64,000 nucleotides of DNA from Thermomonas sp. (GCF_047606765.1 NZ_JASGED010000070.1:2095-66094), one strand, 5' to 3'; positions 44,578 through 56,364 are shown, numbered from the stretch's first letter. The notes: a model not told the origin generated them from the sequence alone. Numbers and translations are program-made.

Positions 44578-45879
44578 TCAGGTACACAGTTCAAGCAGCC
44601 GCTCGATGTCATCCATCTGGTTGTGGAACGATGGCGAGATGCGGATGCGGTCCTGATACAAGGTGGCTTCCATGCCTGCCGCTGTGAAGCGTTCCTGCAA
44701 TCGCTTGCCCACGCCGCGCGCGGCGAAGGTGACGATGGGTGAACGCGAATCCGCTGGCGTCATCGGCAGGTAGCCCAGCGCCGGCATCGCCTGTTGCAGG
44801 CGCGCCAGCAACGGCTGCCGCCACGCGCTGATGCGTTCCACACCCAGTTCCAGCAGCAACTCCAGCGATGCCCGCAACATCGCAACGCCGGCATAGCCCA
44901 GCGTGCCCACTTCGATGCGGCCCGGCGTGTCACTGCGCGCCACGCTCTCGAACGGCGCGCTGCCGGGTGGATCGAACGGGTACAGATGGGTGGTGAAAGA
45001 CTGTTCCTGTCGGTACCCCCACTGCGAGCGCCGCAACGCCGGCAGGCTGCTGGCACGCACGTACATCAGGCCGATGCCGAAATCGCCCATCAGCCATTTG
45101 TAGGTCGAGCACGCTGCAAAATCGACGCCGCAAGCATGCAAATCGACCGGCACGGTGCCGGCCGCCTGGATGATGTCCGCATAGACCAGCGCACCGCGCG
45201 CATGCGCCACGTCGCACAGCGCCTTCAGGTCGTGCTCGAAGCCGTTGAGGCTGGAGACCTGCGAGACCGCGACCAGCCGCGTGCCGGGCGTGATCGCGCG
45301 CGCCATGTCCTCGATGTGGATGCGGTTGTCGCGTGGGCGCACGACGTGCAGATCCAGCCCTTGCTTGGCAAGCTCGCTGTACATGAACAGCGAGCCGCTG
45401 AAGTGGTAGGCATCGGTCACCACCCGTGCGCGCGTTCCCGGCAGGCCCAGCCCCGACACCACATGGTTCTCGCCGACCATCGTGCTGGGCACCCAGGCCA
45501 GTTCGGCGACGTCGGCATTCACCAGCCGCGCGAACAGCCGCATCGCCTGCTCGCGTTCGGCCATGAGATCCACCGACCGGCCATCCCGGTTCATCAGACG
45601 GCCATCGAGGTAATGGCGCAGGCTGCTTGCAGCCCCGCGCGCCACCGGATGCGTGTAGGCACCATTCAGATGCGTGCCTGCGTATTCGAAGCGCGCACGC
45701 GCGCCATCCAGCCCGCCGTGCCGCAATGCCGCACGCACCGGCGATGGCGTGCGTGCCTGCGCCGGCAGCGCCGGCAACACCGCCAGCGCGGGCAGTGCGC
45801 CAAGGCCGCGCAGCCAGCGTCGGCGTGCCGGATCGATGGCATCGTCGCGGTGCGGCAACTGCGTTGCGTCCGTCGTCAT
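44578..45879 (-). CDS. Class V aminotransferase-fold PLP-dependent enzyme with twin-arginine signal
   Basis: ORF 44578..45933(-). ATG at 45879 overlaps the upstream stop (ATGA). N-terminus DPARRRWLRGLGALPALAVLPALPAQA is Tat-like. CSTYKWLMG is a candidate PLP-lysine motif. Confidence 0.8.
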   Translation of the reverse strand: MTTDATQLPHRDDAIDPARRRWLRGLGALPALAVLPALPAQARTPSPVRAALRHGGLDGARARFEYAGTHLNGAYTHPVARGAASSLRHYLDGRLMNRDGRSVDLMAEREQAMRLFARLVNADVAELAWVPSTMVGENHVVSGLGLPGTRARVVTDAYHFSGSLFMYSELAKQGLDLHVVRPRDNRIHIEDMARAITPGTRLVAVSQVSSLNGFEHDLKALCDVAHARGALVYADIIQAAGTVPVDLHACGVDFAACSTYKWLMGDFGIGLMYVRASSLPALRRSQWGYRQEQSFTTHLYPFDPPGSAPFESVARSDTPGRIEVGTLGYAGVAMLRASLELLLELGVERISAWRQPLLARLQQAMPALGYLPMTPADSRSPIVTFAARGVGKRLQERFTAAGMEATLYQDRIRISPSFHNQMDDIERLLELCT

Positions 45880-54390: not shown

Positions 54391-56364
54391 ATGCTGCATC
54401 GCACCCTGCTGCTTGCCACCCTGTTCGCCGCACTGCCCGCTTTCGCACAAACCGCCGAGGTGAAGCGCGAGGTCGCGGGCAACCGCACCAGCGAGAACAT
54501 CCCGCCGATCCCGGCTGAGTTGCTGGAACAGCTCAACCGCTACCAGAACACGCGCGGCGCAGGCGTTGCCGGCTGGACGAAGGACGGCTGCCTGCTGATC
54601 TCCACCCGCTTCGCGGAAACCGCGCAGGTGCATCGCGTGTGCCAGCCGCTTGGCATGCGCGAGCAACTCACCTTCTATCCGGAACCGGTTTCCGGCATCA
54701 CCCCGTCACCGGCCAGGGCCTCGCGCGATGGCTTCGTGTTTGCCAAGGACAAGGGCGGCGACGAATACAGCCAGCTCTACTGGTTCGATGCACAAACACG
54801 CGCCACCACCCTGCTCACCGACGGCGGGCGCAGCCAGAATGGCGGCACCACGCTCAGCGCGGACGGCGGGTTGATGGCGTACAGCAGCACCGCGCGCAAC
54901 GGCACCGACCGCGACGTGTGGCTGCGCGATACCCGCACTGGCGCAACGCGGTTGCTGGTGGATGCCGGCGGCAGCTGGACGCCGCTGGACTTCTCGCCGG
55001 ATGGCAAGGAATTGCTGGTGATGCGCTACGTGTCCGCCGCCGAATCGCATCCGGGCGTGGTCGATGTGGCCAGCGGCAAGCTGACCTTGTTCCCGGTGGA
55101 TGGCGGCAAGGCTGCATTTGGCGGGTTCGCCTTCGCGCCGGATGGCAAGACGGTGTATTTCGTTTCCGACGAGGACGCAGGCGGCAAGCCGCAGGAGTTC
55201 AAGACCCTGCGCCATCACGACCTGGCCAGCGGCAAGCTGGACATGCTCAGTGCCGGCATTCCGTGGGACGTGACGGGCTTTGCCATCGCCGAGGACGGCA
55301 GGCATCTGGCCTATGTCACCAACGAGGATGGCATCGGCAAGCTGCGCGTGCTTTCGTTGCCCGGCCACAAGGAAATCCGGCTGCCGGCATTGCCGGTCGG
55401 CCTGATCGGCGGGCTTGCGTTTTCGCCGGACGGCAAGCGGCTTGCCATCGGCATCAACAGTGCGACCTCACCCAGCGACGCCTACGTGATCGACCTTGCC
55501 GCCGCCACGCTGACGCGCTGGACGCGAAGCGAAGTGGGTGGCCTGGATGCATCGAAGTTCGTCGCGCCCACGCTGGTGCGCTATCCCACCTTCGATCAGG
55601 TCAATGGCAGGCAACGCACGATCCCGGCGTTCTATTACAAGCCGATGAGGCCTGCGAGGAACGGCAAGTACCCGGTCGTCATCAGCATCCATGGCGGGCC
55701 AGAAAGCCAGTCGCTGCCCACCTTCAACCCCACCGCGCAATACCTTGCGGGCGAGATGGGCGTGGCAGTGCTGGTGCCGAACGTGCGCGGCTCATCGGGT
55801 TACGGCAAGACCTATCTGTCGCTGGACAACGCCGGGAAGCGCGAGGATTCGGTCAAGGACATCGGCGCGTTGCTGGACTGGATTGCGCAGCAACCCGAAC
55901 TGGACGCATCGCGCGTCGGCGTGATCGGCGGCAGCTACGGCGGCTACATGGTGCTGGCATCGCTGACCCATTACAGCGACCGCATCCGTGCCGGCGTGGA
56001 TATCGTCGGCATCTCGCACTTCGGCACCTTCCTTGCGAACACCGAGAACTACCGCCGCGACCTGCGCCGTGCGGAATATGGCGATGAACGCGACCCGGCG
56101 ATGAACGCTGTGTTCGAGCGCATCTCGCCACTCAACAACGCGCACAGGATCAAGTCACCGCTGTTCGTGGCACAGGGCCGCAATGACCCGCGCGTGCCGT
56201 GGACGGAAGCCGAGCAGATCGTGAAGGCGGTGCGCGGCAACGGCCAGCCGGTGTGGTACCTGCTGTATGCCGATGAAGGGCATGGCTTTGCCAAGAAGGC
56301 AAACAGCGATTACTACACTGCGGCCACGATGCTGTTCTGGCAGACGTATCTGTTGAACGACTGA
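54391..56364 (+). CDS. S9 family serine peptidase (prolyl oligopeptidase/acylaminoacyl-peptidase type, secreted)
   Basis: 657 aa. Signal MLHRTLLLATLFAALPAFAQ, beta-propeller-like N-terminal half, catalytic GGSYGGYM and ...DEGHGF. Confidence 0.9.
   Translation: MLHRTLLLATLFAALPAFAQTAEVKREVAGNRTSENIPPIPAELLEQLNRYQNTRGAGVAGWTKDGCLLISTRFAETAQVHRVCQPLGMREQLTFYPEPVSGITPSPARASRDGFVFAKDKGGDEYSQLYWFDAQTRATTLLTDGGRSQNGGTTLSADGGLMAYSSTARNGTDRDVWLRDTRTGATRLLVDAGGSWTPLDFSPDGKELLVMRYVSAAESHPGVVDVASGKLTLFPVDGGKAAFGGFAFAPDGKTVYFVSDEDAGGKPQEFKTLRHHDLASGKLDMLSAGIPWDVTGFAIAEDGRHLAYVTNEDGIGKLRVLSLPGHKEIRLPALPVGLIGGLAFSPDGKRLAIGINSATSPSDAYVIDLAAATLTRWTRSEVGGLDASKFVAPTLVRYPTFDQVNGRQRTIPAFYYKPMRPARNGKYPVVISIHGGPESQSLPTFNPTAQYLAGEMGVAVLVPNVRGSSGYGKTYLSLDNAGKREDSVKDIGALLDWIAQQPELDASRVGVIGGSYGGYMVLASLTHYSDRIRAGVDIVGISHFGTFLANTENYRRDLRRAEYGDERDPAMNAVFERISPLNNAHRIKSPLFVAQGRNDPRVPWTEAEQIVKAVRGNGQPVWYLLYADEGHGFAKKANSDYYTAATMLFWQTYLLND

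Follow-up and report, generated by a model that had tools for sequence, protein, structure and literature searches.

A conserved TonB-dependent receptor locus of Thermomonas sp. with predicted exported peptidases, PLP enzyme and RidA, and its proposed role in peptide utilization

Locus organization

The locus described here occupies positions 44578-56364 of a 64,000-nucleotide stretch of DNA from Thermomonas sp. (GCF_047606765.1, NZ_JASGED010000070.1:2095-66094), hereafter called the window. It comprises eight genes, among them those for a TonB-dependent receptor (TBDR) and for a divergent M61-family peptidase, designated M61L. The cluster is real and evolutionarily conserved, and probably belongs to a widespread, modular family of loci through which peptides or peptide-like amides are taken up in a TonB-dependent manner and broken down. 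Six of the genes lie on the minus strand. In the direction of transcription they encode a putative inner-membrane cation symporter of the MFS_2/GPH (glycoside-pentoside-hexuronide) type, referred to as MFS (major facilitator superfamily; 52241-53692, 483 aa), an M28 zinc exopeptidase with a long N-terminal region (50478-52151, 557 aa), a RidA-subfamily enamine/imine deaminase (50008-50478, 156 aa), the TBDR (47656-49878, 740 aa), M61L with a C-terminal PDZ-like domain (45876-47591; its start overlaps no gene) and a class-V pyridoxal phosphate (PLP) enzyme predicted to be exported by the twin-arginine translocation (Tat) pathway (44578-45879, 433 aa). On the plus strand, a regulator of the Lrp/AsnC family (53813-54289, 158 aa) is divergent from the MFS gene and is followed by an S9 serine peptidase with a beta-propeller and an alpha/beta-hydrolase domain (54391-56364, 657 aa). 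Gene starts were chosen by signal peptide and homology, and the open reading frames (ORFs) agree in position, strand and frame with the eight genes listed in a preliminary description of the window. The M28/RidA junction reads TGATG with one base in common, the stop codon of M61L and the start codon of the PLP gene overlap in ATGA, and the other minus-strand gaps measure 89 nt (MFS/M28), 129 nt (RidA/TBDR) and 64 nt (TBDR/M61L), all as previously given.

Family calls were made with Pfam and NCBIfam at curated thresholds, which confirmed seven of the eight proteins. The matches are Aminotran_5 (121 bits) for the PLP enzyme, Plug and TonB_dep_Rec_b-barrel for the TBDR, PF01042 (Ribonuc_L-PSP, 101.6 bits) for RidA, Peptidase_M28 (88.9 bits), MFS_2 (PF13347, 281.9 bits and well over its cut-off) for the symporter, an HTH_AsnC-type domain with AsnC_trans_reg for the regulator, and Peptidase_S9 (131.9 bits) with PD40. 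The domains and ORFs thus bear out the divergent Lrp/AsnC gene and the S9 gene behind it. M61L is without any Pfam or NCBIfam match at default thresholds, and its naming rests on profile and structure comparison.

Encoded proteins

M61L is a divergent M61-family metallopeptidase, as judged from its sequence profile and a structural model. The protein had been named from the start as M61 with a PDZ domain; this name fails at the Pfam cut-offs, where PF05299 (M61) reaches 15.8 bits against 22 and PDZ_6 reaches 17.8 bits against 27, and holds by the other comparisons. Several relatives of M61L carry a PF05299 match. In an alignment of 35 family members, H301, E302 and H305 of the HExxH motif and E319 (WFQEG, in a WFxEG context) are invariant, which is the gluzincin signature. 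The M61L profile matches the Protein Data Bank (PDB) entry 7XYO ("Aminopeptidase M61", Myxococcus fulvus) over residues 119-548 with E=1.3e-30, the PDZ part included, and the HExxH and Glu residues align onto the same residues of that structure; the PDZ domains of RseP are also matched (E ~1e-5). The AlphaFold model (pLDDT 92.6) retrieves with Foldseek 7XYO (E=3.5e-34, TM 0.66-0.71), 8J9C from Xanthomonas campestris and 4FGM as top matches, and M1 aminopeptidases rank after the M61 structures. An exhaustive profile search gave 1,087 cluster representatives (50% identity) at E<=1e-30; the family is moderate in size and largely unannotated. An exact-sequence look-up of the M61L protein returned no record. 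Within the locus family, M61L serves as the signature gene.

The PLP enzyme was presented earlier as a class-V enzyme with a twin-arginine signal. Aminotran_5 and the Tat motif agree with this assignment, which is here amended to a SufS-like protein that lacks the catalytic cysteine. An AlphaFold2 model (pLDDT 84) and profile searches place it nearest to the type-II cysteine desulfurases SufS and CsdA at about 21% identity, and all NCBIfam cysteine-desulfurase models are far below their cut-offs. The PLP-binding lysine (K261) and the carboxylate-binding R413, which is aligned to the SufS Arg, are invariant in the family, as is D235, assigned by its position in a YADIIQ motif as the ring-nitrogen Asp. 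The loop that bears the catalytic Cys in SufS (HHCAQPLMKW) shows up as an insertion when SufS is aligned to the family profile; it is absent family-wide, and the family alignment has no conserved Cys in the corresponding C-terminal region. Since this loop is missing, the enzyme cannot be a persulfide-forming desulfurase, and a cysteine desulfurase is ruled out. Orthology to PvdN is likewise ruled out (30.6 bits against a cut-off of 650). Its substrate is probably a free alpha-amino acid. A periplasmic lyase or deaminase is the likely and most economical reading, with RidA hydrolyzing the enamine or imine that it forms; an aminotransferase or epimerase activity may also be considered. A precedent for a NifS-like enzyme without the catalytic cysteine is the cyanobacterial cystine lyase C-DES. 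The PLP family is large (more than 2,462 matches at E<=1e-20) and generically annotated.

RidA scores 95.5 bits with TIGR00004, just below the cut-off of 106.25, and its signal peptide lies outside the model. Its PARS motif aligns with the PAR of RidA structures, so that the active-site Arg equivalent to R105 of Escherichia coli, which imine hydrolysis requires, is kept. In many lineages Rid genes flank the PLP gene. That RidA genes cluster with genes annotated as L-cysteine desulfurase is a general observation made earlier (Niehaus 2015, PMC4433059). Full-text literature searches returned no report of an exported RidA, either alone or paired with an exported PLP enzyme.

The TBDR has a Sec-type signal, a plug, a barrel and a terminal Phe. 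The best PDB match of the M28 peptidase is 3IIB (E=4e-20), and M28 homologues occur in the loci of L001 (a Pseudoxanthomonas metagenome-assembled genome), L081 (a metagenomic contig) and Caulobacter. With TIGR00792 the MFS protein scores 227.9 bits, marginally under the cut-off of 231.35. In five Steroidobacteraceae-type loci, homologues of it (47-50% identity) come after the cluster, and S9, M61L, a TBDR and a more distantly related class-V enzyme are present in these loci as well. The MFS protein is the presumed importer of the periplasmic products; in other variants this role is taken by an amino-acid permease or an Opp-type ATP-binding cassette (ABC) system. The S9 gene is not conserved in place: a gene for a 684-aa amidohydrolase stands there in L081 and nothing in L001, and the S9 genes that adjoin M61L in Steroidobacteraceae-type loci are non-orthologous. 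An Atxe2-type lasso peptide isopeptidase is ruled out for the window S9 protein (NF033523, 41.1 bits against a cut-off of 400).

Export signals

Signals of the window proteins were read from the N-termini, and homologues in all clusters were scored with an in-house heuristic. The N-terminal region of the PLP enzyme reads RRRWLRGLG...AQA and is of the twin-arginine type, and its sequence ARRRWLRGLGALPALAVLPALPAQA has the S/T-R-R-x-F/L-L motif, the hydrophobic stretch and the A-x-A site that were looked for. R19 and R20 are at least 90% conserved among 34 diverse PLP homologues, Bacteroidota included, the exception being a protein of Pseudomonas putida. Sec-like signals, with the endings AMA, ASA, VSA, AFA and SAQ, are seen among M61L, TBDR, RidA, M28 and S9. 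By the heuristic, signals were found in 93 of 108 M61L, 80 of 101 S10, 4 of 4 RidA, 6 of 6 S9, 8 of 9 M28 and 10 of 13 PGA_cap proteins, and the Tat motif in 27 of 38 PLP enzymes. The cytoplasmic controls scored 0/49 (Lrp), 0/25 (class I/II aminotransferase) and 2/27 (OCD), and so contrast with the exported families. Clear signals are present on the PF01042 RidA proteins of Xanthomonas bonasiae, Shewanella and L081; the PF14588 YjgF proteins have none. N-termini and homologues agree in predicting Sec-like export for M28, RidA, M61L and S9 and Tat export for the PLP enzyme, in line with what had been proposed from the window sequence.

Conservation of the locus

A scan of one genome per GTDB species yielded 144 relatives of M61L, of which the 80 best loci, each with flanks of 10 kb, were retained. 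All neighbouring ORFs were clustered, the representatives were annotated with Pfam and NCBIfam, and the window proteins were compared by tblastn. Since related sphingomonads contribute many of the 80 loci, all counts given here overstate the number of independent events. The nearest relative (L001, 66-82% identity) has the order Lrp | MFS-M28-RidA-TBDR-M61L-PLP, and the contigs L081 and L082 have the same arrangement beside dnaG. This check of co-occurrence and synteny, which the preliminary description had called for, finds the genes not scattered in relatives. Within 10 kb of M61L, a TBDR is encoded in 58 of the 80 species loci, an additional peptidase or amidohydrolase in 67, an Lrp-type or PAS_6/HTH_22 (YheO-type) regulator in 52 and the class-V PLP enzyme in 33; TBDR and PLP enzyme occur together in 25, and only four loci (two Duganella, two Paludibaculum) have none of TBDR, peptidase, regulator and PLP enzyme. 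A TBDR directly adjoins M61L in 30 of 81 loci, and TBDR orthologues with 36-66% identity stand next to M61L in many of them. An Lrp gene lies within 10 kb in 43 loci and is adjacent in 28 of 81.

The most frequent partners found by ORF clustering are S10 serine carboxypeptidases, often in two or three copies (55 loci), and an exported amidohydrolase of about 700 aa whose best model is the Caulobacter Xaa-Pro dipeptidase (43 loci), a figure shared by Lrp. They are followed by the class-V PLP enzyme (37), TBDRs of the ~750-aa (34) and ~1000-aa (29) types, an OCD/mu-crystallin protein resembling Pyr2C/Pip2C reductases (27), a GntC/VioD-like enzyme of the class I/II aminotransferase fold (25), an APC amino-acid permease (20), the PAS_6/HTH_22 (YheO-type) regulator (13), a PGA_cap protein with the peptide epimerase MslH as best model (12), M28 (9) and S9 (6). 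The window RidA has tblastn matches in 8 of the 80 loci. The PGA_cap (CapA-like) genes sit among S10 genes in their 12 loci (for example L030, 15600-16994).

The family is spread over Gammaproteobacteria (Xanthomonadales, Rhodanobacteraceae, Steroidobacteraceae, Alteromonadales, Woeseiaceae), Alphaproteobacteria (Sphingomonadales, Caulobacterales, Nitrospirillum/Azospirillum, Hyphomonadaceae), Betaproteobacteria and Acidobacteriota, with one member from Bacteroidota. Seen from the side of the PLP enzyme, Xanthomonas bonasiae has the order S10-S10-TBDR-S10-amidohydrolase-YjgF-PLP-RidA-M61-M61L; in Shewanella mangrovi a YheO-type regulator is followed by TBDR-M61L-S10-amidohydrolase-YjgF-PLP-RidA-M61-S10, and in a Mucilaginibacter the PLP gene stands with an M1-like peptidase and a SusC-type TBDR. 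The P. putida locus (L086, CP018846.1, 1780633-1799781) encodes ExbD, an Opp-type ABC importer (SBP_bac_5, two permeases and an ATPase with oligo_HPY), TBDR, YjgF, PLP enzyme and two S10 proteins, and continues with a 536-aa protein, an M19 dipeptidase, PGA_cap and an M17 aminopeptidase. Compared by hhalign, the 536-aa protein proves to be a full-length M61L (probability 100%, E=1.7e-79). None of the P. putida enzymes has a signal peptide. The enzyme set therefore exists in two predicted versions, a periplasmic one with an MFS or amino-acid permease and a cytoplasmic one with a peptide-type ABC importer, and the latter is the strongest contextual argument for a peptide substrate.

Among the M61L representatives are M61L-S10 fusion proteins of about 1000 aa in both orders, and one M61L-S10-RidA protein of 1223 aa. 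Their recurrence with either domain first speaks for genuine fusions and for a functional connection of the peptidases with RidA; the fusions are seen at the protein level only, where gene-calling artefacts are possible. The proteins are P0170, P0174, P0192, P0193, P0257, P0277 and P0290, with the C-terminal RidA in P0174.

The core of the locus is TBDR, M61L, class-V PLP enzyme and Rid, which is common to Xanthomonadales, Rhodanobacteraceae, Alteromonadales and Pseudomonas. M28, S9, MFS, S10, the amidohydrolase, PGA_cap and the amino-acid permease are interchangeable accessories. The eight window genes, put forward together as one system, are accordingly not a conserved unit: M28, MFS and S9 are accessory to the four-part core.

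Transcription units and regulation

The six minus-strand genes had been taken for a single operon, which is doubtful. Two transcription units, MFS-M28-RidA and TBDR-M61L-PLP, are more likely. The RidA-TBDR spacer (49879-50007, minus strand, 129 nt) is a candidate promoter/operator for TBDR-M61L-PLP. A block of it is kept with L081 and partly with L001, in a spacer whose other DNA has diverged and differs by large indels. In L001 a two-gene toxin-antitoxin-like pair is inserted exactly at this spacer on the opposite strand (6644-7134, minus strand), so that in L001 TBDR-M61L-PLP must have a promoter of their own. The inserted pair consists of a 61-aa ORF and a 102-aa ORF, the latter ParE/RelE-like as judged from its sequence. 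A hairpin with a T-run stands directly 3' of the RidA stop codon; it is weak evidence, since the total of terminator-like structures in the scan equals the shuffled expectation. A sigma-70 promoter scan gave no hits.

In the 64-kb window the sequence ATTTT(N1-2)GCAYG has four occurrences where 0.55 would be expected; as the motif was only defined once the sites had been seen, it is no more than a lead for Lrp binding. Of the four sites, three fall within the two control regions and are on the operon strand, at 49964-49975 and 49994-50005 in the RidA-TBDR spacer and at 53723-53733 (ATTTTTGCATG) in the divergent Lrp-MFS region (53693-53812), which holds this one site. Only the core TTGCATG recurs upstream of TBDR in L081 and L001.

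Another TBDR gene of the window (38285-40468, plus strand, 727 aa) is followed by a gene for a PepSY_TM protein of 626 aa, the pair spanning 38285-42500. A TBDR paired with PepSY_TM is typical of ferric-siderophore uptake and reduction. The best candidate Fur box of the window (14/19) is found upstream of this TBDR at about 38212-38230 (AGTAACGATAATCGTTTTC). Upstream of the locus TBDR there is no Fur-box-like site, the best match (10/19) being at background level, and the comparison with the neighbour argues against an iron role for the locus.

Proposed function and alternatives

The locus is taken, with fair rather than high confidence, for a member of a modular family of peptide or peptide-like amide utilization loci. 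An oligopeptide would cross the outer membrane via the TBDR and would be trimmed in the periplasm by exported M61L, with its PDZ-like domain probably gripping the peptide C-terminus, and also by the exported M28 and S9 peptidases. The Tat-exported PLP enzyme would turn a released free alpha-amino acid into an enamine or imine, exported RidA would hydrolyze it to a 2-oxo acid and ammonium, and the GPH-type MFS symporter would carry the products into the cytoplasm. The divergent Lrp-type regulator would tie expression to an amino-acid signal, probably at the MFS promoter and at a separate TBDR promoter. The substrate and every step of transport and catalysis are proposed from sequence, structure prediction and gene context. 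The proposal builds on the observed gene content, co-localization, conserved export signals, active-site residues, fusions and cytoplasmic Opp-linked variant. Peptide capture and periplasmic dismantling, the role first suggested for the locus, is made plausible in particular by the conserved co-localization, the fusions and the P. putida variant.

Several points weigh against this assignment. The presumed importer of the window locus belongs to a family best known for glycosides. A GxMEN-type N-terminus-binding motif is not evident in M61L by reading the sequence, so that an exopeptidase mode is only tentative for it. The overrepresentation of sphingomonads and the after-the-fact definition of the ATTTT(N1-2)GCAYG motif, both given above, also count here. 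So do the relatives of the receptor: the best NCBIfam model for the TBDR is that of a siderophore-receptor subfamily (TIGR01783, 139.9 bits against a cut-off of 223.5), and its best PDB match, the nearest solved relative, is the siderophore receptor FyuA (4EPA, E=1.4e-30). These two matches favour the uptake of a peptidic xenosiderophore or metallophore whose periplasmic breakdown releases the metal, as does the weak similarity of the PLP enzyme to PvdN, the periplasmic, Tat-dependent pyoverdine-tailoring enzyme. Such a role is improbable, given the background-level Fur match, a locus without FecIR, periplasmic binding protein/ABC system or reductase, regulators of the Lrp or YheO types, and partners elsewhere that are amino-acid permeases, OCD proteins and aminotransferases.

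The GPH-type importer, the large amidohydrolases that are frequent partners of M61L, and the ong cluster, which has the same kinds of parts (PMC9537276), would fit use of an amino-sugar acid, a glycopeptide or another N-acyl conjugate. There is little to recommend this, since neither in the window locus nor among the recurrent neighbours was a glycoside hydrolase, a sugar kinase or an RpiR/GntR-type sugar regulator seen, the recurrent hydrolases are of the peptidase families M61, M28, S9, S10, M19 and M17, and the P. putida variant has an Opp-type peptide ABC transporter. That the genes are chance neighbours, or serve unrelated envelope housekeeping without forming a dedicated system, is hardly credible: each family is common in Xanthomonadales genomes and housekeeping genes enclose the region (dnaG to one side; ada, alkB and cta genes to the other), but the co-localization is kept across several phyla, is accompanied by fusions and is recovered reciprocally from the PLP side.

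A modified-peptide specialization refines peptide utilization and does not contradict it. With the same architecture, the locus may be dedicated to peptides that ordinary peptidases cannot finish, such as those with D- or dehydroamino acids or otherwise modified residues from cell-wall material, necromass, peptides made on ribosomes and then modified (RiPPs) or non-ribosomal peptides, and its PLP enzyme and RidA would handle the unusual residue. Ahead of import, a cysteine-less, Tat-exported SufS-like lyase together with Sec-exported RidA would then turn that residue into a keto acid and ammonium, which would be the first periplasmic enamine/imine (2-aminoacrylate-type) metabolism. This is put forward tentatively. 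In related loci, the best model for PGA_cap is MslH, the epimerase of the C-terminal Trp of a lasso peptide (198 bits, below the cut-off), which may hint at epimerized peptide C-termini in some variants, and related loci also have the M19 dipeptidase, the Pyr2C/Pip2C-reductase-like OCD protein and the GntC/VioD-like PLP enzymes. The fusion of RidA to M61L-S10 would be sensible if hydrolysis itself frees an enamine from a dehydro-residue, and minimal loci of the Rhodanobacter/Dyella type consist of one peptidase with TBDR, PLP and Rid genes. Against it, the window locus is without PGA_cap, M19 and OCD, its S9 protein is not of the Atxe2 isopeptidase type, and the many broad exopeptidase families would suit general peptide scavenging as well.

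In environmental Proteobacteria, TBDRs rank with the most abundant proteins, and it is widely assumed that they import oligopeptides. According to a 2021 survey, gene context seldom identifies the substrates of TBDRs that are not linked to carbohydrate-active enzymes (CAZymes). A divergent M61 peptidase together with a TBDR, a Tat-exported PLP enzyme and Rid is proposed as a genomic signature of peptide-directed TonB-dependent uptake, which could serve the annotation of hundreds of genomes. The carriers P. putida, Xanthomonas and Shewanella are tractable, and the signature raises the question of what a PLP enzyme and an imine deaminase do in the periplasm.

Comparison with known systems

Xanthomonas carbohydrate utilization (CUT) loci and the polysaccharide utilization loci (PULs) of Bacteroidota combine a TBDR, exported degradative enzymes, an inner-membrane secondary transporter, often of the GPH/MFS type, and a local regulator. 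The Thermomonas locus shares their co-localized layout and, as predicted, the periplasmic dismantling before import. It differs in that its hydrolases are peptidases and in that it adds predicted periplasmic PLP and RidA chemistry and an Lrp-type regulator. Pfam and NCBIfam detected no glycoside hydrolase, other CAZyme or SusD domain in the eight products or the recurrent neighbours, so that the earlier comparison with CUT loci and PULs, with peptidases in place of carbohydrate-degrading enzymes, is borne out. What is new here is the combination of peptidases and periplasmic amino-acid chemistry in a known, TBDR-centred layout of nutrient loci. The preliminary description had named no known system of this composition, and full-text literature searches likewise found no description of such a locus type.

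RagAB of Porphyromonas gingivalis (cited in PMC11817032) is a SusCD-type TonB-dependent importer of oligopeptides, which as in the proposal made here serve as nutrients. It is a Bacteroidota system that needs a SusD-like lid, and its genes are not known to be accompanied by those for periplasmic exopeptidases, RidA or a PLP enzyme. The TBDR of the locus is a classical 740-aa receptor without a partner lipoprotein.

The gammaproteobacterial ong cluster of Pseudoalteromonas, for oxidized chitooligosaccharides, encodes a TBDR, an inner-membrane symporter, an amidohydrolase of the D-aminoacylase type, a PLP-dependent deaminase, an essential RidA and a regulator (PMC9537276). There the amidohydrolase, the PLP enzyme and RidA work in the cytoplasm on an amino-sugar acid, and the cluster has a GH20 hexosaminidase and a sugar kinase. 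In the Thermomonas locus, by contrast, the PLP enzyme and RidA are predicted to be exported and their partners are peptidases. The known functions of RidA are cytoplasmic, which also separates the locus from cytoplasmic RidA-PLP pairs, and PvdN resembles the locus PLP enzyme as a Tat-exported class-V PLP enzyme of which it is not the orthologue.

A lasso-peptide isopeptidase gene stands beside lasso-peptide gene clusters (PMC13352647). The taxa that have clusters with AtxE2-type isopeptidases (Asticcacaulis, Caulobacter, sphingomonads) overlap with those of the locus family, and in such clusters an exported S9-family enzyme opens a peptide. The window S9 is not of the Atxe2 family, and no lasso biosynthesis genes were seen. 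Maksimov and Link reportedly noted a TonB-dependent transporter in the lasso isopeptidase clusters in 2013.

Genomic neighbourhood

On one side the locus is flanked by dnaG (42844-44568). On the other, the genes beyond S9 lie within 56445-60237 and encode an Ada-like AraC/MGMT fusion (56445-57341), an AlkB-like 2-oxoglutarate-Fe(II) oxygenase, a UbiA-family (CtaB/CyoE-like) prenyltransferase and a CtaA-like protein. These flanks are ordinary housekeeping genes, which places the locus on the chromosome with no obvious island. Rfam and tRNA scans of the window gave no matches. The G+C content is about 66% across the window, with no compositional break at the locus, and at this high G+C many spurious long ORFs arise. 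The 1107-aa ORF at 50478-53801 (minus strand) is an artefact, as the M28 frame stays open upstream through the MFS gene, and longest-ORF calling would mis-annotate this segment.

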